DNA from: a virus
Lineage: Duplodnaviria; Heunggongvirae; Uroviricota; Caudoviricetes
Direction: 5' to 3' (one strand)
DNA length: 18,585 nucleotides
Virus record (IMG/VR): IMGVR_UViG_3300028833_000126
Span: 64,716-83,300 of that record
Below the pieces are notes generated by a model. It worked only from the letters and a program-made list of their open reading frames with translations, was not told where the DNA came from and did not search any database. A program made the translations under genes and the position numbers. Below are positions 5,772 through 17,061 of the stretch, one piece after another. Every line of letters begins with the position of its first letter. Positions within the stretch are counted from its first letter, which is position 1.

Positions 5772-6320
5772 CTATCCTTTTGTGCCGAGTCGCTTTCTGT
5801 TCTCAGCATTGATTCTCGCGTGATCTGCCATAATCTCCTTCATAGATTGTTTCTTTTTGGGCTGATTCTCGGCATTACATACGCGAATAAGTGTGATGAG
5901 CCGGTTCAAATGCCAGTTCTCACACGGTTCAAAAGGTATCTGCAAAGAGACCATCCAGTAATAAATGACCTCCGCAGTGATTATGTTCCTTCTTGGTTGC
6001 TTTTGCGGTCCTCTTTCAGAAATCGTTGTAGCTGTCATTGGGTCGTTAATGTAGCCCAAGATAATATCAATTGTCCTTTTTGACAATGTTTCATATACTC
6101 TGCTATTAACATTTGGAGTTAAAGTCATGCATCGCACATAGTCAATAGTTTCAGCATGAGTCTTTTCTTCCTTTGACAGAAACGGTTTCTTCCATTTTGA
6201 TTCCCACTTAGCAAGAGAGACGAGCGAATGCTCCAGTAAGATGGTTTGTCCCTCTATATAGAAAAATTCCTGTGTTCGCTCATCCCAATAGTCTCCTCCG
6301 GGAATTACTAGGCGAAGCAT
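5772..6320 (-). CDS. Conserved tail-region protein, probable tail assembly chaperone partner (182 aa)
   Basis: Fills the gap between the chaperone and the neck gene. LEHSLVSLAKWESKWKKPFL and WHLNRLITLIRVC look like a conserved phage protein. No clear SD upstream. Confidence 0.6.
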   Translation of the reverse strand: MLRLVIPGGDYWDERTQEFFYIEGQTILLEHSLVSLAKWESKWKKPFLSKEEKTHAETIDYVRCMTLTPNVNSRVYETLSKRTIDIILGYINDPMTATTISERGPQKQPRRNIITAEVIYYWMVSLQIPFEPCENWHLNRLITLIRVCNAENQPKKKQSMKEIMADHARINAENRKRLGTKG

Positions 6321-6329
6321 AGGCTATGT

Positions 6330-6725
6330 TTATTCGATTACAGCAACCTGTCCAACAGATTCCTTAACGTCAGCAGGCATAATGCCATTCACAAAAGCTG
6401 CTGCTTCCTTGGAATCGCTTGCAAGCGCAACGAACAGATCAGAGTAAGCGTTTGTCTGCGCAAATTCTTCAGAGAGCTCGGGAGACTTAATAAATCTCTT
6501 GCCGTCCGGAGATTTCACGCCGTAAGACTTCAAGATAAGTTCCTTGAAGATCTTGATGATTGCAGGCGTATCTTTTGCCTTGGTGATTCTCTCGATCGTA
6601 GCACCGAGGCCACCTTCGGTCGAGAGCTCCATTTCTGTGATTTCAGCTTTCGTGAGGTTGAAATAGAAGTCTTCGTTTCTTTCCTCGTCGTTGAAATCCT
6701 TGTAGGTCATGTTCTTCACATACAT
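6330..6725 (-). CDS. Tail assembly chaperone (131 aa; start reassigned to MYVKNMTY at 6725)
   Basis: AAAGGGGA RBS before the ATG at 6725. The longer track ORF crosses a terminator and overlaps the tail gene. Acidic helical protein directly after the major tail protein. Confidence 0.7.
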   Translation of the reverse strand: MYVKNMTYKDFNDEERNEDFYFNLTKAEITEMELSTEGGLGATIERITKAKDTPAIIKIFKELILKSYGVKSPDGKRFIKSPELSEEFAQTNAYSDLFVALASDSKEAAAFVNGIMPADVKESVGQVAVIE

Positions 6726-6747
6726 GGTAAATTTCCCCTTTCGGTAT

Positions 6748-7510: not shown

Positions 7511-7816
7511 TCAGTAATATAATTCGAGTGCCCAATGATTCAGATTATCTGCCGTATAATGTCGATTAAAGCTGCACAATGGCAGTTCAAGCATCTTATC
7601 CACGAGCGGGTAATCCGGATCTTTGCTGATAATGTTAACAAAGTATCTCTTTTTACCGAGATACGTCTTATTGTCAGCTTTCGCTATGAAATATCTGTCA
7701 AGATTGTAGACGATGCATGGATACACCAATCTGACAGTCTCGGGCGGCTGAAAATAAACATGGCTTGACCCAAGCAGTTCTTCAAGAATATGATGCAGTT
7801 CAATTCTCCGGTCCAT
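7511..7816 (-). CDS. Tail terminator/completion protein (101 aa; start MDRRIELH)
   Basis: GGAGGTG SD 6 nt before the ATG at 7816. VYFQPP...YPCIVY motif; lies immediately before the tail tube gene. Confidence 0.75.
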   Translation of the reverse strand: MDRRIELHHILEELLGSSHVYFQPPETVRLVYPCIVYNLDRYFIAKADNKTYLGKKRYFVNIISKDPDYPLVDKMLELPLCSFNRHYTADNLNHWALELYY

Positions 7817-8135
7817 TCCAAACACCTCCAACGGTAAGAACGATTCTCGGATAATTCACTTTCACATCCGTGATTTTCCACTTGTTGCCAAGCCATGTCA
7901 GATACCGCATATAAGCAAGATTCTCCATAGCAAAAGGATCGGCAAGAATGCTGATCTCATTACGAACATTGATGTTGTCGTTCAAGCCTTCACCAGTTTC
8001 ATAGCGTCGGTTGTTCGACAATACATCGCCATAGTAATGCCGTTCGGTTTCAACCTCTGTGTAAACACCGGGATGATTCACAGGATCGGTCTCTTCCGTT
8101 CGCATATAACCGACTGTTCCGTAATATTTCGCCAT
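7800..8135 (-). CDS. Head closure (stopper) protein (111 aa)
   Basis: GAGGA RBS. Beta-rich, ending ILADPFA...YLTWLGNKWKITDVKVNYPRIVLTVGG; follows the capsid gene. Confidence 0.72.
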   Translation of the reverse strand: MAKYYGTVGYMRTEETDPVNHPGVYTEVETERHYYGDVLSNNRRYETGEGLNDNINVRNEISILADPFAMENLAYMRYLTWLGNKWKITDVKVNYPRIVLTVGGVWNGPEN

Positions 8136-8181
8136 TTTGAATTCCTCACTTATTCATCATCCGATGGCTGAATAGGGTCCT

Positions 8182-8228
8182 TGGCGTGATCTAGAATCGG
8201 ATCGTATGTATGATCCAGAATCACGCCA
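8182..8228 (-). other. RNA stem-loop 7 nt downstream of a GGGGGAA slippery site at the capsid 3' end
   Basis: TGGCGTGAT (8228-8220) pairs with ATCACGCCA (8190-8182); inner GGATC (8216-8212) pairs with GATCC (8203-8199). No U-tract follows, so it is not a typical terminator. Confidence 0.7.
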
Positions 8229-8232
8229 GAGA

Positions 8233-10242
8233 TTATTCCCCCACCACGTGCTCAACGACGATCGCAGAATTCGGCTTAACAAGAGTACCGGACTCACGAG
8301 TCTCGATAAGGTACTCAAGCTTGTTGAAGTCGATATCGAAGTCATCAAACCAGTTGACCTGACCACCCTTGTCGTTACCGACGTTATAGTCGTTGAGGTC
8401 GACAATGATTGCATCAAGAACTCTGGTAGCACCAGACACTGTTCTGGTCTTGTTCTTCATGACCGGAACGCCGACAACATTGTCAACGAGCATCGCAGAA
8501 GCAAGCTCCGCCTTGGACTTGTAAAGTCTGTGACCGAAACCATCCTCAAGAAGCATCAGATCGGAGAGTTTATCCGTCGCAATGAATGCGGTCGTGTTGC
8601 CAGAGCCATCGTAATCGTCAAAGCCCTTAACGGCAGCACGAATGACGCCCTTAGCGATGTCTTCAGTAGTAGCGTTAGCCGGAACAGTAAAGACGGCGTT
8701 GACAGCAAAGAGATCTTCCATGGTCCAAATCGGACGGATCTTGGTCTCGTCGATCTTGCCGGGAGCAGAGATACCGCGACCGTCACCAATCAGGTAAGCG
8801 CGAGCACGCTCCTCATCGAGCTTAAGCTTCATTTCAGCCTTCAGCCATGCAACAACGTCGAAATCGGTGATGTCGAGAACGTCATCGCGGTCGATCTTCT
8901 GGAGCTTGTAGATGGTAGTGGCAGGAGTCTCACGCTTAAGGAGAGCGATGACCTCTTCAACCTTCTCAGTGCCCTTTGCATAACCCTTTGCACGAGCTTC
9001 ATCAGGAGTGATGTCAGCAAAGATGGATCTGATACGGGAGAACGGGGTGTGATGAACACCATTCATGACAGTTGTAACCCAGTTCTGGTTTTCCTTAATG
9101 AGCTCAGGGCGGTTAGTATAGTTCTTGTAATCGGGATACGCATTGCTAATGTCGGTGATGCCGTGCTTGAGAACAGCTTCTTTCAGGCTGCCCATCTTCT
9201 TCGCGTCATTGAGGATCTCAATCTGCTCGGCGTGGGTGAGAACTTCCTCGTTCTCCTTGGTCTTTTCGAAAACATTGTATTCCATGTTATTACCTCCTTC
9301 GGTATTTTCAGAAATGTTAGAATCGTTGTGGGTGATTTCTTCCTCTTCGTCAGAGTGCTTTGTGTCAGCCTTTTCAGCTTCAATCCTTGCCTGGCCAACA
9401 AGAAGGTAGAAGACGTTCTTCTGCTCTTCGGTCATAGTATTGATGATGTCTTCAACGGTCTCTTCAGAGTCATCGCTAGAATCATCCGCATGGTTTGCTT
9501 CATCAGGATCTTCATCGTCCGAATCTTCAGAGCCATCATCAGTCAGAGCGAGACCGATGAATGCATAAAGAAGATCTTTCTGCTTCTTGTTGAAAGATTT
9601 CACAACATCAGCAACGGTCTTTTCATGTTTCTCTTCGGTCTTCGGCTCAGGCTCGTTGTCCGCATGAGAAACCTCTTCGGTTTTCTTTTCGGGCTCGCTA
9701 GTTTCTTCGGACTTGACCTCGGTCTCGGTGTTCTGTTCTTCAGACTGTTCCTCGGATTCTTTCTCAGGCTCTTCTTTCATGTCCGGATCAACGTGCTCAA
9801 GATCGATAAACTCATTCATAAAAATGATAGCTTCGCCTTCGGAAACTTCTCCGTGACGAATCACCTCATCGATATGAGCGCCGGAATTTGCACCGGCAAG
9901 CACAAGAGACACTTCTTTGATCTCGCCGTGAAGAACGTCTCCACCATTCTGCTTGAGATGTGTTGCGCAGATGGACAGAGAGTCCACATCGCCATGAAGA
10001 ACGGCAAGCTTAGCACTCTGAGCCTTCTTAGTTTCATTGAACGAACAGTAAGCATAAACGCCCTCATCTTCGTTATGAAGCAGGGCGTTTCCGAGAACAT
10101 TTTCGGGATCGTTATGCTGATGATTCCATACAAGCGGAACCGTCTTGCCGTCACATTCTTTAAATGCGTCTTTTCGGATAGTTCGACCGTCAGTGCAGAG
10201 AATGTTATTCTTTGTCGCCCATCCGCTAAAATCATAAGACAT
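8233..10242 (-). CDS. Prohead protease-scaffold-major capsid protein fusion (669 aa)
   Basis: AAGGAGG RBS. N-terminal ~130 aa has HK97-type protease motifs (VPLVWNH, DSLSI, EVSLVLAGAN). An acidic low-complexity linker follows, then a ~350-aa capsid-like domain (YKLQKIDRDD, RAYLIGDGR, FDDFDIDFNKLEYLIETRESG). Confidence 0.9.
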   Translation of the reverse strand: MSYDFSGWATKNNILCTDGRTIRKDAFKECDGKTVPLVWNHQHNDPENVLGNALLHNEDEGVYAYCSFNETKKAQSAKLAVLHGDVDSLSICATHLKQNGGDVLHGEIKEVSLVLAGANSGAHIDEVIRHGEVSEGEAIIFMNEFIDLEHVDPDMKEEPEKESEEQSEEQNTETEVKSEETSEPEKKTEEVSHADNEPEPKTEEKHEKTVADVVKSFNKKQKDLLYAFIGLALTDDGSEDSDDEDPDEANHADDSSDDSEETVEDIINTMTEEQKNVFYLLVGQARIEAEKADTKHSDEEEEITHNDSNISENTEGGNNMEYNVFEKTKENEEVLTHAEQIEILNDAKKMGSLKEAVLKHGITDISNAYPDYKNYTNRPELIKENQNWVTTVMNGVHHTPFSRIRSIFADITPDEARAKGYAKGTEKVEEVIALLKRETPATTIYKLQKIDRDDVLDITDFDVVAWLKAEMKLKLDEERARAYLIGDGRGISAPGKIDETKIRPIWTMEDLFAVNAVFTVPANATTEDIAKGVIRAAVKGFDDYDGSGNTTAFIATDKLSDLMLLEDGFGHRLYKSKAELASAMLVDNVVGVPVMKNKTRTVSGATRVLDAIIVDLNDYNVGNDKGGQVNWFDDFDIDFNKLEYLIETRESGTLVKPNSAIVVEHVVGE
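9283..9299 (-). promoter_or_regulatory. Internal in-frame translation start (AAGGAGGT-6 nt-ATG at 9285) for a 350-aa capsid protein
   Basis: Minus strand GAAGGAGGTAATAACATGGAA: perfect SD with 6-nt spacing, at the linker/capsid boundary (M320). Confidence 0.75.
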
Positions 10243-10260
10243 TTTGATTCATTCCTCCTT

Positions 10261-12552
10261 CTACAGATTTTTCTTACCCTTATAGACTACAGTGGTAGAT
10301 TTTTCTTTGCTTCCACTGGAGCCCTTGGTTTTCTTTGTGGTCTGATACTTTGCCTGAGACTTGATCTGCTCGAGTTCTTCTTCATACATCTTTTTATACT
10401 CATCACGAACCTGCTGACTGTAGTCTTTGTGTTCCTGTTTGAGCCTATCAGATGTATCTTTATGCTCCTGCTTCACCTGCTTAGAGGTGGCCTTATGGTC
10501 TTCACGCAGCTTGCTTGTCTTGCTCGAGTGACTCTGACGCTCAGCATCCGCAGTCATTTTGTGCAGTTCATTGAGATCGTTTCTCTGAGATTTGAATTCT
10601 TCAGAAAGCTCTTCTCTCTTCGCCTTGTTATCAGCTCTGAGTTGAGCAATTTCTTCGTTGATCATCTCTCTTTGATTTGCCTTCTCGGACTTATCAAGAC
10701 CTTTGAGGTAGTCCTTAAGCGCGTCAATTCTGGACTGCATCTGATTCTTATGCGATTCAACCTCAGTCTTCATGCGCTCACGACGAGTCTCGATAGATCT
10801 GTCTCGATTAGCTTTTGAAGACTCGATCATGCGATCGCGATTCGCCTTTGAAGCTTCGATTGCCGCATTCATGCCTTCTTTCGAGGCTTCGACGCGTTGA
10901 CTCGCGGAATCCTTGCTTGACTCGATGTTACTGTCCATCTGAGTCTTGTGTGCATTGATCTTCGCATTGCGCTCGCTGTTATACTGCTCCCTCGCATAGC
11001 GCGCTGCGGCTCTTCCTTCTTCGTTCAGACCTTTGGTAGACGATCTTTCATAGTCTTTATGAAGGCCCTTCTTTTCGAAGTTGATGTAGTACAAGTGCCT
11101 GCGCTCAGGATCATAATCGCTTGCGTGAAAGAAGTCCTCGTCATCATCGGAATGACTTACAGAGTCAGAATTAACAGTTTTCTCGAGAGCATTGAGCTGC
11201 TTATCGACATCATCGAACTGTTTAACCAATTCGAGGTATTCCACTTCAGTCATCGGCTCTTCTTGAGTTTCCTCATCAGACGCATCCTCTTCGTACTCTG
11301 TTCCATCCTCAGGCGCCTCTTCGTCTGTCGGTACCATAGGACCACCAGTGGTATCGTAGAGGTTCTTGTTTCTGAGCGTGTCCGCATTCGGATCATCCGA
11401 GGGCTTCATACCGATTGCCTGACGAATCTCATTGGATGTAACGATCTCGTTTCTCGTGAGCTTATCTGCAATCTCAGCAATCTGATCCATCGGGACAAGA
11501 GCAAGAGGATCTCTGAAGTATTCGATGGATTGCCTCTGAGAGATGGCAGTCTTTGTGAGAAATGTTCGCTTCATGCTGTCAGCAACAGCAGCCACAAGCG
11601 GCTCAATAACACGATTGTTATAATTGAGCATTGTTTTCTCATCGGCAGTACCATTCAGAATCTCGGGTGTAACGCCAACCTGTGAATAAGCAAGATCTGT
11701 GAGATACTGAATCTGACCAAGAAGATTATTCTCGAGAGGACGGTTAAGCTGCTGAATCCGTTCAGTACCATCTGTGTAAGCGATACCGTATTTTGATCCG
11801 GAAAGCTGCCGTTCGATCTCATTCCTTCTGATCTCTGCCTGCTGTCGCTTCTGCTCTGTCTTAACAACATAAGGAAGCTGAATAATCAGATCAAGCTTAC
11901 CGGAAGACGACTGCTCATCGACTGCATCGAGAAGTGCGAGTTTATGTGTCAATCTCTGGAATGTCGAGTTCGGCTCATTCATGATGGAGTAGAATGGGTT
12001 CTCTACAATTGCCACGATCTTCTTCGGAACAATAACGTCCTCTCGAAGACCGGTGTTTTCATTGTAGACGTTCACTTTCACCATCTTGCTTCGCCATTCA
12101 ACGATCTTGCCGACACGCATATTGTTGATCGAGTAAGTACCTGAAATCTCAGGGTCAAATGTGGTGTCAATCGGAACAAGAGCAATGGCTCCTTCATCAA
12201 GAAGCGATAAAAAAATATTCAGACGAAACGCACGCCCCGTCTGATCGATATTTGCTTCGAGATTAAGACAACGGTTGAGACCGGAGTCAATAGTTTCAAC
12301 ATATCTGTCATTCTCGTCGAGTCTGACATGCTGAATTACTACCTGCGCTGCATCAACAGCGATTCTGTTTTTTAATACGGTTACGATCGACTTGTCAGAC
12401 AAAGCGTTATAATATGCTCCGCTGATATAGCCCGGGCGATAACCGTCAAGACCGCCATAACTCCAGTCTCGCATTCGTCTTTCGTCCGTCGGGTCACGGC
12501 TCTTGAAGACGTTCCAGGCATGTTTCAGCCTGTTCGCAAAAGAAAGTTCCAT
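10261..12552 (-). CDS. Portal protein with long C-terminal acidic plus coiled-coil extension (763 aa)
   Basis: AAGGAG RBS; sits between the terminase block and the protease. Portal-like core of ~400 aa (LNRCLNLEANIDQTGRAF, SLLDEGAIALVP, LTRNEIVTSNEIRQAIGMKP), then a ~340-aa extension. Confidence 0.9.
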   Translation of the reverse strand: MELSFANRLKHAWNVFKSRDPTDERRMRDWSYGGLDGYRPGYISGAYYNALSDKSIVTVLKNRIAVDAAQVVIQHVRLDENDRYVETIDSGLNRCLNLEANIDQTGRAFRLNIFLSLLDEGAIALVPIDTTFDPEISGTYSINNMRVGKIVEWRSKMVKVNVYNENTGLREDVIVPKKIVAIVENPFYSIMNEPNSTFQRLTHKLALLDAVDEQSSSGKLDLIIQLPYVVKTEQKRQQAEIRRNEIERQLSGSKYGIAYTDGTERIQQLNRPLENNLLGQIQYLTDLAYSQVGVTPEILNGTADEKTMLNYNNRVIEPLVAAVADSMKRTFLTKTAISQRQSIEYFRDPLALVPMDQIAEIADKLTRNEIVTSNEIRQAIGMKPSDDPNADTLRNKNLYDTTGGPMVPTDEEAPEDGTEYEEDASDEETQEEPMTEVEYLELVKQFDDVDKQLNALEKTVNSDSVSHSDDDEDFFHASDYDPERRHLYYINFEKKGLHKDYERSSTKGLNEEGRAAARYAREQYNSERNAKINAHKTQMDSNIESSKDSASQRVEASKEGMNAAIEASKANRDRMIESSKANRDRSIETRRERMKTEVESHKNQMQSRIDALKDYLKGLDKSEKANQREMINEEIAQLRADNKAKREELSEEFKSQRNDLNELHKMTADAERQSHSSKTSKLREDHKATSKQVKQEHKDTSDRLKQEHKDYSQQVRDEYKKMYEEELEQIKSQAKYQTTKKTKGSSGSKEKSTTVVYKGKKNL

Positions 12553-12570
12553 TTTGATTTTGCTCCTTCC

Positions 12571-13697: not shown

Positions 13698-14183
13698 TTA
13701 GTCATACCATTCGGGACTTCGCAGAATAGTAGCCGTTGTACTGACAGTTTCAAGATGAGGTCCCATGACATCTCTGATTTTATTGACGGTGCTAACAACC
13801 GTTGACACAGCACCGGTAACGGCGGCAATCGTTCCGGCAGTTTTTACGAATTTATCGACATAATCTTTACCGCTTTTCTTTGCAACACTGTCCTTTGTCA
13901 TTTTTTCGTACTGCTTTTCGAGATTTAGCCGATTGACGATCTGCTGAAGCTCTTTGGTATCATACTCTTTAACCGACTTGCCAGAATGCGCCTGCTTGTA
14001 ATCATCATGCTCTTTTCCGGCATTTTTAAGAGTATTTCCTTCTTCTCTGGTAGTAAAGTCTTCATCATATCTCTTTCTACCAGCAGGAGTAAGGGTACCA
14101 TCTTTGTTCTGGAATCTTCTCACACCCCACTTCATTCCAAGAATGCCATGGTGTTCCAGTTCATCAGTTTTATTATACTCCAT
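13698..14183 (-). CDS. Leader-motif protein C (161 aa; start MEYNKTDELEHHGILGMKWG), function unknown
   Basis: GAGGAGG RBS before the ATG at 14183; same leader; C-terminal amphipathic/hydrophobic helix (FVKTAGTIAAVTGAVSTVVSTV). Confidence 0.85.
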   Translation of the reverse strand: MEYNKTDELEHHGILGMKWGVRRFQNKDGTLTPAGRKRYDEDFTTREEGNTLKNAGKEHDDYKQAHSGKSVKEYDTKELQQIVNRLNLEKQYEKMTKDSVAKKSGKDYVDKFVKTAGTIAAVTGAVSTVVSTVNKIRDVMGPHLETVSTTATILRSPEWYD

Positions 14184-14211
14184 TTTGATTTTCAACCTCC
14201 TCTCTGCTCGA

Positions 14212-15289: not shown

Positions 15290-17038
15290 TCAAGATTCAA
15301 AAGCGTCACGGTTGGCTTTATATGCCACATAGGCGTCCATCAAAGCTGCAACTGAGTCAATTTTCTGGTCATACCGCTTCTTCATAAGTTTGCGGTTGCC
15401 GTTCGTATCTTCGACCGTGATACAGTTCCCCATTGCAAATGTCATGAGCTGCTCATCGAAGATCAGCATCCGCTCACCAGCAAGTTTCTTGAGCTCGCCA
15501 AGAGGTACAGATTCGGTCTTGGCGCCCTGAATGACTTTCTCAACGCCGAATGAACCATTCTCGGTGATCCATCGCTCGACAAACTCTCTCGCATTATACG
15601 GGTCATAGCCAAAGCACCTGACATCATACTCCTTTTCGGTGATATGACGGTCAAGATCTTCGTAAACTTCAATCATGTCAAGGACAGTGCCTTCCATGAC
15701 CACAAGAGAACCTTCAGCCATGAACTCCTCATACTTCTGCCTCAGAGCTGCCTGTAACTTGCTCATGGTGAGTGATGTAATGTATGCTCGCGTCTTCACA
15801 CCATAACAGCCGTTCGATAGCGGGAACAAGAAGGTGAATGCGCAGAAGTCGTCACCAAGCGATAGGTCTGCACCAAGTGCGCAAGGCATTGACCAGAAGT
15901 CTCTCGGACGGTGAACCTTCGTCTCCTCATATGTGAAGTAATACGTGTAGCCCTCCATAGGAATGCCGAACCTCTTCGCAAGAATATCGTTGCGGGCGGA
16001 AGGAACCTTCTCTGCTCTCTCGACATCGAGCTGGTAGACATCGTAAGTGACTGTCTTCCCGAGATTCGGATTACACTTGAGCCACATGTTCGGCTTGCCG
16101 ACTTCATCAATATTGTCGAGCTTGTACCACCAGATAGAGACATGCGGGTTGATGTACTCGCCTTTGAGGATCTGCATAAGCTCCATTTTGATTGCGTCAC
16201 CAACACCGTTACGCACAGTGCCTTCAGAACTTGTCGCGATGATGATGTAATCTTCAAGCTTGGACGCACCTTGCTCAATAGGGCCTATGACATCCTCATT
16301 CACATCTCCAGAAAGCCACTCGTCGATCGTTGCTACCTTGCATCGCAGACCCTGAAGTCTGTCAACACTCATGGGTCGGATCTCAAGAAGCGATCCATTA
16401 AGGAAATTCTCGATTCCCTTCTTCGTCGAAGCGAGCTTAACACGTTTGGCTTTTGAACCGGTTGTGTTCTGGAGAGAACCTTCTGTCAGAAAACGAAAAA
16501 GCGGCCCACGAGACCGTGTGATGGCTGTCCGAATGGGGTTAAGCACCTCATCAGCCTGTCGCATGGTCGGAGCCGTCGTAATCTGGTTTGTTGTTGAAGA
16601 GTCTGAATTCAAGAAATAGGCCTGAATGCTCGAGGCATACATTGACTTTGCCGCACCTCGTCCGACAATCAGATACTGCTTGTGGCAAAGACGTTTCCGA
16701 ATTCTCTTTCGAACATATCGTCCACCATGTCCATCAGACCGTGGCTCGTAGACAGTTCTTTCATCAAAGTAGTACCATCCGAGAAGATCTTCTCCCCATA
16801 ACTTGAAGGAAGGAAGAAGCGTCATGTCTGAACCGTCTGTCAGAGTAAGCTCATTCTCACAGAACTTCACCCAACGCTCGACAGGTTCAGGGTCATAGTA
16901 GTAGTTCGGACTTCGGATCAAGTAGTCAATCCGGTTCATCTGCAATGAGATTTCACGGTTTACGGGTATTTCACCCCTGATAACGGCATCCCTGAACTTG
17001 CCGTAATACTTTGGGACGGCAGTGTTCGATAATGCCAT
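15290..17038 (-). CDS. terL: Terminase large subunit (582 aa)
   Basis: AAAGGAG RBS. Walker A-like GRGAAKS, Walker B VATIDE, coupling motif ATSSEG, RNase H-like nuclease acids (GADLSLGDD, KIDSVAALMDA). Confidence 0.95.
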   Translation of the reverse strand: MALSNTAVPKYYGKFRDAVIRGEIPVNREISLQMNRIDYLIRSPNYYYDPEPVERWVKFCENELTLTDGSDMTLLPSFKLWGEDLLGWYYFDERTVYEPRSDGHGGRYVRKRIRKRLCHKQYLIVGRGAAKSMYASSIQAYFLNSDSSTTNQITTAPTMRQADEVLNPIRTAITRSRGPLFRFLTEGSLQNTTGSKAKRVKLASTKKGIENFLNGSLLEIRPMSVDRLQGLRCKVATIDEWLSGDVNEDVIGPIEQGASKLEDYIIIATSSEGTVRNGVGDAIKMELMQILKGEYINPHVSIWWYKLDNIDEVGKPNMWLKCNPNLGKTVTYDVYQLDVERAEKVPSARNDILAKRFGIPMEGYTYYFTYEETKVHRPRDFWSMPCALGADLSLGDDFCAFTFLFPLSNGCYGVKTRAYITSLTMSKLQAALRQKYEEFMAEGSLVVMEGTVLDMIEVYEDLDRHITEKEYDVRCFGYDPYNAREFVERWITENGSFGVEKVIQGAKTESVPLGELKKLAGERMLIFDEQLMTFAMGNCITVEDTNGNRKLMKKRYDQKIDSVAALMDAYVAYKANRDAFES

Positions 17039-17061
17039 TTTGATTTTCTCCTTTCAAGGGC

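Follow-up and report, generated by a model that had tools for sequence, protein, structure and literature searches.

Putative Recoding Elements behind the Capsid Gene

The DNA analyzed here (the window) is an 18,585-nt stretch of a Caudoviricetes virus (positions 64,716 to 83,300 of the IMG/VR record IMGVR_UViG_3300028833_000126), and the element under study is a candidate programmed -1 frameshift at the 3′ end of its major capsid gene. All genes around this end are encoded on the minus strand. The capsid domain occupies the C-terminal 240 residues of a 669-aa open reading frame (ORF; the Pfam match to Phage_capsid covers residues 428–663), the nearest GenBank relatives of the ORF, from Arthrobacter, Gordonia and Streptomyces phages, are labelled “major capsid and protease fusion protein”, and Peptidase_S78 is on record for homologues of the protein. 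The C-terminal 310 residues gave an AlphaFold (AF2) model of mediocre quality (mean predicted local distance difference test score, pLDDT, 63) that matched the HK97-fold shells of the gene transfer agent (GTA), encapsulins, HK97, T7 and T5; it was used solely for confirmation of the HK97 fold and not for placing the C-terminus. Sequence searches of the PDB with the capsid domain and with an 18-sequence profile gave no match.

The capsid gene ends in GTG GGG GAA TAA, as a first-pass annotation made from the letters of this DNA had described, and the heptamer GGGGGAA lies two codons ahead of the stop. Translation in the -1 frame from the heptamer on gives GG-IISGVILDHTYDPILDHAKDPIQPSDDE and terminates with a TAA at 8152-8150, filling the gap ahead of the ribosome-binding site of the next gene, which belongs to the DUF7253 family; the Shine-Dalgarno (SD) sequence of that gene (GAGGA, 8147-8143) follows the tail stop directly and its ATG (8135-8133) comes 14 nt after it. 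The 28-residue tail has seven acidic and one basic residue (net charge about -6) and contains ILDH twice; both the open frame and the repeated ILDH had been pointed out before and are present. The nearest upstream stop in the -1 frame is located four codons before the heptamer, so a productive shift is confined to the last six capsid codons. A putative stem-loop begins 7 nt after the heptamer, inside the range of 5–9 nt expected of frameshift stimulators: the outer stem is formed by TGGCGTGATT (8228-8219) and GATCACGCCA (8191-8182), the inner stem by GGATC (8216-8212) and GATCC (8203-8199), with an 8-nt loop. The hairpin of 9 plus 5 bp proposed earlier agrees with this structure in position, distance and inner stem, and its outer stem gains one U-A pair.

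On the coding strand of the 83.3-kb genome, GGGGGAA occurs in phase four times, and solely the copy at the capsid end is directly followed by a stop and has a hairpin and a long -1 frame besides; the other three have no adjacent stop, hairpin or gap-filling -1 frame, and an in-phase GGGAAAG near a gene end of the same genome has neither a hairpin nor a gap-filling -1 frame. Taken by itself, the window would only suggest a frameshift cassette; the weight comes from its relatives. The coordinates of the features are listed in Table 1.

Table 1. Features of the capsid 3′ end in the window, and loci with the GGGAAAC junction in other contigs.
Feature	Position	Strand	Basis
Protease-scaffold-major capsid fusion gene, 669-aa zero-frame product	8233..10242	minus	ORF and Pfam PF05065
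Slippery heptamer GGGGGAA, phase G GGG GAA of the capsid frame	8236..8242 (8242-8236)	minus	in-phase
Zero-frame stop TAA abutting the heptamer	8233..8235 (8235-8233)	minus	read from sequence
Tail ORF in the -1 frame: 30 codons counting from the heptamer and 28 residues past the junction	8150..8242	minus	open frame
Putative stimulatory stem-loop: 10-bp outer stem, 5-bp inner stem, 8-nt loop	8182..8228	minus	fold
DUF7253 gene, 111 aa, next after the capsid gene	7800..8147 (including SD)	minus	Pfam PF23911, E = 3.5e-40
Loci with the GGGAAAC junction elsewhere	L276:9570-10084; L253:10574-11061; L260:10190-10689; L279:9281-9858; L261:7652-8208		

We consider it probable (roughly three in four) that a programmed -1 frameshift at the end of the capsid gene provides a minority of the capsid proteins with the 28-residue acidic tail. 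This reading is preferred because the tail is conserved and always recoded, it bears a coding signature, and the stem shows compensatory changes. Most ribosomes would read GGG GAA and terminate at the TAA, giving the 669-aa protease-capsid precursor. A minority would stall at the stem-loop 7 nt downstream with their tRNAs on G GGG GAA and slip back by one base, tRNA-Gly re-pairing on GGG and tRNA-Glu on GGA by means of a central G:U pair. The shifted ribosomes would then read 28 further codons and produce a 697-aa precursor (…VVG(E or G)-IISGVILDHTYDPILDHAKDPIQPSDDE). The adjoining stop codon, which is slow to decode, probably assists by slowing the zero-frame alternative, and the extended subunit would be expected to co-assemble as a minor component of the capsid. 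The sequences show the layout of the cassette, its conservation, a coding signature in the tail and covariation in the stem; slippage itself and its efficiency, like the location and role of the tail, are inferred. Slippage of the RNA polymerase was also considered; it is unlikely on G5 and cannot account for the lineages with G3A3.

Distribution of the Tail among Related Capsid Genes

Relatives were collected from IMG/VR, from metagenome and genome contigs, and by a search of 5.8 billion proteins, followed in twelve cases to the encoding contigs. Homologous tails were found behind homologous capsid genes in L244, L241, L242, L251, L002, L005, L245, L248, L252, L003 and L247, and the tail comparison thus comprised 12 sequences including the window, or about 10 distinct lineages. 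The capsids of these relatives are 58–75% identical to that of the window (96% in L244). Most relatives apparently come from rumen or gut material.

Four arrangements occur at the capsid 3′ end. (a) The window, L241, L242, L251 and L244 have GGGGGAA with TAA or TGA and a tail of 28–30 residues in the -1 frame; L001 and L081 belong here as well (L001, L081 and L244 are relatives of the window at 96–99%). (b) L002, L005, L245, L248 and L252 have the canonical G GGA AAC with TGA and a -1 tail; L006 and L161, a prophage in an Oscillospiraceae metagenome-assembled genome, are identical to L005 at the capsid 3′ end. (c) L003 and L247 lack the heptamer and carry the tail in frame behind a TGA. (d) L083, L085, L246, L249 and L250 have no tail, and the next gene starts 19–35 nt past the capsid stop. 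All 10 of the -1 tails have an in-phase heptamer abutting the stop, and none of the 12 tails is in the +1 frame. No tail fused to the capsid without a stop was found among the 120 best annotated protein hits; that the tail is never plainly fused in frame argues that selection maintains it at a low dose. Conservation across the ~10 lineages thus supports the minor extended capsid isoform that the first-pass annotation had predicted.

Some 90 protein clusters are 67–75% identical to the window in the capsid domain. Among 158 distinct capsid 3′ ends in the wider family, GGGGGAA or GGGAAAC was found at the stop in 12, and the stop directly follows the heptamer in every one of them. A -1 frame of at least 30 codons is present at all 12 of these ends vs. 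14 of the 146 others (Fisher p = 3e-11; the rows are related and not fully independent, and the p-values ignore phylogeny).

Coding Signature of the Tail

The tail evolves as a coding sequence under purifying selection, as judged from several features of the aligned sequences. The tail frame has no internal stop in any of the 12 sequences; the other two frames contain about two stops each on average, and 1 in 24 is stop-free. The tails align without gaps across 27 codons with I4, I8, D10 and D18 invariant. They fit the pattern x-x-[ILM]-I-[ES]-[DEG]-x-I-[QL]-D-[H..]-x4-hydrophobic-hydrophobic-D as a consensus, and beyond it their ends vary. In pairwise Nei-Gojobori comparisons, the proportion of synonymous differences (pS) far exceeds that of nonsynonymous differences (pN) in the tail frame and in neither of the shifted ones (0.72 vs. 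0.12 for L245/L248; 0.87 vs. 0.29 for L241/L251). Column entropy summed to 22.6, 17.8 and 33.1 for codon positions 1, 2 and 3 (permutation p = 0.0005), and the five differences between the tails of the window and L244 are synonymous in three cases and conservative in two.

A coding tail might also be a separate small protein, translated by termination-reinitiation or from a weak start near the capsid stop. Such a product would fit L251, L243 and L179, in which the -1 frame behind GGGGGAA-TGA starts at an ATG overlapping the stop (ATGA), the 30-aa and 136-aa ORFs that the gene caller annotated at ATGA ends, and the GTG at codon 7 of the window tail. The comparison makes it highly improbable: most lineages lack a start codon that could serve the tail, the tail frame of L241 has no ATG, GTG or TTG anywhere, those of L005, L242 and L003 have a start-type codon just near the tail end, in L005 and L003 not ahead of its last third, and the conserved N-terminal motif lies upstream of the GTG of the window. 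With no early start codon in these frames, the N-terminal motif would be made solely by ribosomes arriving from the capsid gene. A separate protein would, moreover, need neither a -1 placement with an in-phase heptamer nor an in-frame placement behind a TGA.

The first-pass annotation had likened the repeated ILDH of the tail to a His motif in the head module and suggested trimming of the tail by the prohead protease. This found no support: at these sites only the Asp residues are invariant, the first His being present in 8 of 11 lineages (the near-identical L244 not counted) and the rare second one in few. The residue after the tail His is bulky (T, V, L, F); that after the conserved His residues of the linker is G, A, S or N. 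By analogy with the known systems treated below, the tail would probably also sit on the outside of the shell, whereas the protease is internal. The linker His sites themselves (capsid residues 130–360; window 9163-9855, minus strand) are invariant across four lineages at 63–67% identity, with hydrophobic-x before the His (VIRH-G, DLEH-V/A, EAxH-A, xKH-SDE, EIxH-N, VLxH-A/S and VLxH-GITD), and this pattern would fit the separate proposal of that annotation that they are maturation cleavage sites.

Structure and Covariation of the Stem-Loop

The relatives with -1 tails keep the heptamer (GGGGGAA or GGGAAAC), an open frame and a stem, which was the comparison that the first-pass annotation had called for. 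The onset of the stem lies 7–8 nt past the heptamer in all frameshift lineages (z-scores -1.3 to -6.4). The 3′ arm falls into three registers, namely alignment columns 52–61 in the window, 69–78 in the GGGAAAC group and 78–91 in L241, L251 and L242; a fixed distance combined with three registers of the 3′ arm is expected if selection targets a structure at a given distance and not one RNA motif. A 14-bp helix shared by three sequences has 90% of its cells paired and five compensatory pairs, compared with 36–52% paired and 0–1 compensatory pairs in slid controls, and the stem of the seven-sequence group is 77% paired vs. 19–46% in its slid controls. In the 96–99% relatives L001 and L244, substitutions lengthen the inner stem. 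The stem is weakest in both lineages with an in-frame TGA (L003 and L247), where frameshift stimulation would be unneeded; in L247, the 3′ arm has decayed and the tail frame is still open. The 3′ arm is part of the tail ORF, and for this reason the peptide is in its C-terminal half largely a mirror of the N-terminal one.

It is improbable that the hairpin is an RNA element only, stabilizing, processing or attenuating the mRNA, with an incidental heptamer and -1 frame. Stem-loops after capsid genes are common and covariation of the stem is what such an element would show, but the sequence following the stem of the window (AGGACCCTATTCAG) has no T-run, which rules out an intrinsic transcription terminator, and Rfam 15 contained no family matching the stem (solely sub-threshold miRNA-like hairpins at E of at least 0.3). 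An element of this kind would explain neither the three-base periodicity, the excess of pS over pN in one frame and a frame free of stops in 12 of 12 sequences, nor the in-phase heptamer in 10 of 10 -1 tails and the fixed distance of 7–8 nt to a stem whose 3′ arm changes register.

A further small hairpin (TATTCA..TGAATA, enclosing a CAT/ATG pair; window 8150-8174, minus strand) spans the final codons of the tail together with its stop and lies just ahead of the DUF7253 SD. In several relatives, the codons at the tail end (W-E-stop, TGGGAATAA) could pair through GAAT with an ATTC that follows the SD.

Relation to the Downstream Gene

The tail stop lies 14–15 nt ahead of the DUF7253 ATG in 11 of the 12 sequences; L252 has a gap longer by 50 nt, and its tail frame stays open for 46 codons and ends 14 nt before the next ATG. 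This would be compatible with another function of the shift, which would then be real: its main purpose could be to deliver ribosomes to the DUF7253 SD, the peptide being of minor importance. Only shifted ribosomes would cross the hairpin, and expression of the head-completion genes would be tied to a small, fixed fraction of capsid translation. The match between the length of the ORF and that of the gap in L252 favors this idea, as does the C-terminal half of the peptide, which is highly variable and mirrors the 5′ stem arm; besides, capsid protein is needed at a far higher copy number than connector proteins. We nevertheless regard it as unlikely. Synonymous changes have left I4, I8, D10 and D18 and the acidic character intact, and this indicates selection on the peptide; and the DUF7253 gene has a strong SD of its own (GGAGGAA). 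In the tail-less relatives, the capsid stop is 19–35 nt before the same start, so gating is not generally required, and in other relatives the same cassette joins domains of ~130 aa or a Cadherin-like domain to the capsid.

Evolution of the Tail and Lineages with an In-Frame TGA

In the maximum-likelihood tree of the capsid domain, the four tail states are interspersed. L245, which has the frameshift form, and its near-identical sister L249, which has no tail, are set apart by branches of 0.012 and 0.031, a sign that the segment from the capsid gene to the DUF7253 gene was recently replaced; L251 (GGGGGAA) and L005 (GGGAAAC) are also sisters, and L002 (frameshift) groups with L003 and L247 (TGA). 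The interspersed states imply that the tail was repeatedly lost or exchanged and that the route of access to it changed.

The arrangement in L003 and L247 looks like readthrough of the capsid TGA, to judge from the sequences, and this TGA is followed by A (those of the neighboring genes by G or T). A reassignment of TGA was rejected, as the neighboring genes of both contigs stop normally at TGA. Insertion of selenocysteine was considered for these two lineages, which have a UGA with a hairpin 11 nt later; in L247 the stem is degraded. A coat readthrough protein made via UGA is known as A1 of Q-beta. The tail of L003 and L247, in frame behind TGA-A, resembles this case; Q-beta, an RNA phage, differs in the large size of its extension, the readthrough of L003 and L247 is putative, and the window uses the frameshift form.

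Larger Extensions and Similar Junctions in Other Genes

In more distant members of the capsid family, larger extensions follow the same series of heptamer (GGGGGAA, TTTTCAA or CCCCCAA), stop and hairpin. In L243 (2970-3383) and L179 (2183-2575), GGGGGAA-TGA with a hairpin leads into a domain of ~130 aa in the -1 frame. The same domain follows TTTTCAA/TTTTCAG-TAA in L019 (3476-3865), L025 and L047, lies in the -1 frame behind CCCTTCC-TGA, not a recognizable slippery heptamer, in L134 (3240-3641), and is apparently carried in frame by P0096. Pfam had no match for this domain in L243, L025 and L019, and sub-threshold matches only in L179 and L134. In L188 (3156-3446), CCCCCAA-TAA leads into a Cadherin-like beta-sandwich (PF12733, E = 4e-9). 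Such extensions agree with the published picture of Ig-like domains joined in frame or by frameshift and with the known capsid frameshifts.

A scan of IMG/VR for the 17-nt junction GGGAAAC-TGA-TNGAGGA showed that it also ends ORFs of 112–123 aa with -1 extensions of 49–76 aa in unrelated phages (loci in Table 1), where a stem starts from the GGA ~7 nt past the heptamer. PHROG identifies two of them as tail assembly chaperones (phrog_16513, E = 1.5e-42; phrog_344, E = 7e-7), and the GGGAAAC junction therefore serves accepted frameshift sites too. The shared junction could be the result of convergence on an optimal context, or it could be a mobile junction. A corresponding pattern scan of IMG/VR for the GGGGGAA junction gave two hits, neither of them cassette-like. 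A bolder proposal, to which we give a small chance, is that heptamer, stop and hairpin form a portable module that is swapped among capsid tails, Ig-like domains and chaperones, interconverts with UGA readthrough and doubles as a gate for the next gene. If this were true, the share of tailed subunits and the capsid-to-connector ratio of the clade would both follow from a single slip frequency.

Comparison with Known Recoding Systems

In T7, the shift occurs at about 10% and adds an extension of 53 aa; the resulting 10B is exposed on the surface and dispensable. The extension in A2 measures ~85 aa and is essential. The window resembles 10A/10B of T7 and T3 in a predicted slip within the last codons of an HK97-fold capsid gene that would yield a minor isoform with a short C-terminal extension. 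It differs from them in the heptamer (GGGGGAA or GGGAAAC in this clade), in the stop abutting it, in the local stem-loop 7 nt on and in the 28-aa, strongly acidic tail; it concerns a protease-capsid fusion of Clostridia phages without sequence similarity to T7/T3. Judged by T7 10B and by the domain extensions of its own capsid family, the tail would most likely lie on the outer surface of the shell.

As the first-pass annotation had stated for T7 and T3, capsid frameshifts are documented, and the published cases include T3, T7, A2, A118, A500 (-1 in A118 and A500) and PSA (+1); the extension of A2 is Ig-like, that of T7 is not (PMC5009743). According to Fraser et al. (2006), as cited in PMC5009743, Ig-like domains are joined to phage structural proteins in frame or by frameshift. 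The window tail, with its 28 residues, is far too short for an Ig-like domain, and a domain of this kind was recognized just in the distant L188. With gp5A/5B of Lactobacillus phage A2 and with the Listeria phages A118/A500 and PSA, the window shares the type of host and phage (siphophages of Firmicutes) and a recoding, predicted in the window, at the 3′ end of a head gene that gives a longer second capsid component. Unlike A2, with its Ig-like domain, and PSA, with its +1 shift, the window has a 28-aa peptide that is missing in several close relatives.

The heptamer itself is best known from tail chaperones. GGGGGAA is the annotated -1 slip site of ~1000 SEA-PHAGES actinophage tail-chaperone genes and the only “five-two” motif among the ~1000 annotated chaperone frameshifts, a G:U pair being proposed to explain tRNA-Glu on GGA (PMC10885494), and the corynephage phi16 also uses it (PMC5506516). 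The earlier attribution of this slip site to chaperones is thus borne out by PMC10885494, which does not state that it belongs to L5-like phages specifically. The chaperone G/GT of actinophages has the identical heptamer and the same G:U re-pairing; gene and product differ. The chaperone gene of the window has no such slip site. Its Phage_TAC_17 ORF ends at 6330 (region 5772-6740, minus strand), the next ORF (5772-6320) continues in the same frame behind two stops (...E*T*PM...), and neither a slippery heptamer nor the usual G/GT -1 frameshift was found in this region.

Assessment of the Proposed Frameshift and Its Implications

Several observations weigh against a programmed frameshift. The hairpin of the window is just moderately better than shuffled sequences (z about -2.2 to -2.5; -2.2 over 121 nt and -2.5 over 84 nt), and G GGG GAA departs from the canonical X XXY YYZ, so that a G:U pair in mid-codon is required. 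GGGGGAA is present in phase three more times inside genes of this phage, and the heptamer alone is not strongly avoided. The tail is absent from five close relatives, including L249, the sister of L245, which makes the extension a dispensable, accessory feature. The C-terminal half of the peptide is in large part dictated by pairing with the 5′ arm, and that part may have no function of its own. Finally, the ~10 lineages compared may have exchanged the segment by recombination. Taking these points together with the evidence from the relatives, we regard the locus as a well-supported new example, at the level of sequence comparison, of a recoding trick already known from phage T7.

If the tailed product is made, it has been missed by gene callers, and the virion proteome of these widespread Clostridia phages of rumen and gut is incomplete. 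The clade represents a natural recoding experiment, in which the same tail is reached via GGGGGAA, via GGGAAAC or via an in-frame UGA, or is absent, and in which the stem has been rebuilt in three registers; it offers a ready-made mutant series for the separate contributions of heptamer, adjacent stop and stem in Firmicutes and would permit testing what a sub-stoichiometric acidic tail does for the capsid. In practical terms, a modest gain can be expected, in the form of improved phage annotation and perhaps a natural site for display on the capsid.

Other Features of the Window

An open frame of 870 codons, probably the shadow cast by an acidic, GAN-rich coding strand, lies antisense to the capsid gene and the portal 3′ end (window 8206-10818, plus strand).

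A start motif, (A/T)ATCAAAATGG, occurs seven times within two mismatches in the window, compared with 1.05 expected, and all occurrences are on the minus strand (8132-8144, 12549-12561, 17035-17047, 14180-14192, 16183-16195, 6192-6204 and 2125-2137). The starts of the portal, terL and DUF7253 genes are among these sites. Conservation of the spacer between the SD and the ATG, as in this motif, is unusual, and even where the capsids of two phages are just ~45% identical, the DUF7253 homologue has a longer form (GGAGGAATTCAAAATGGC) ahead of it.

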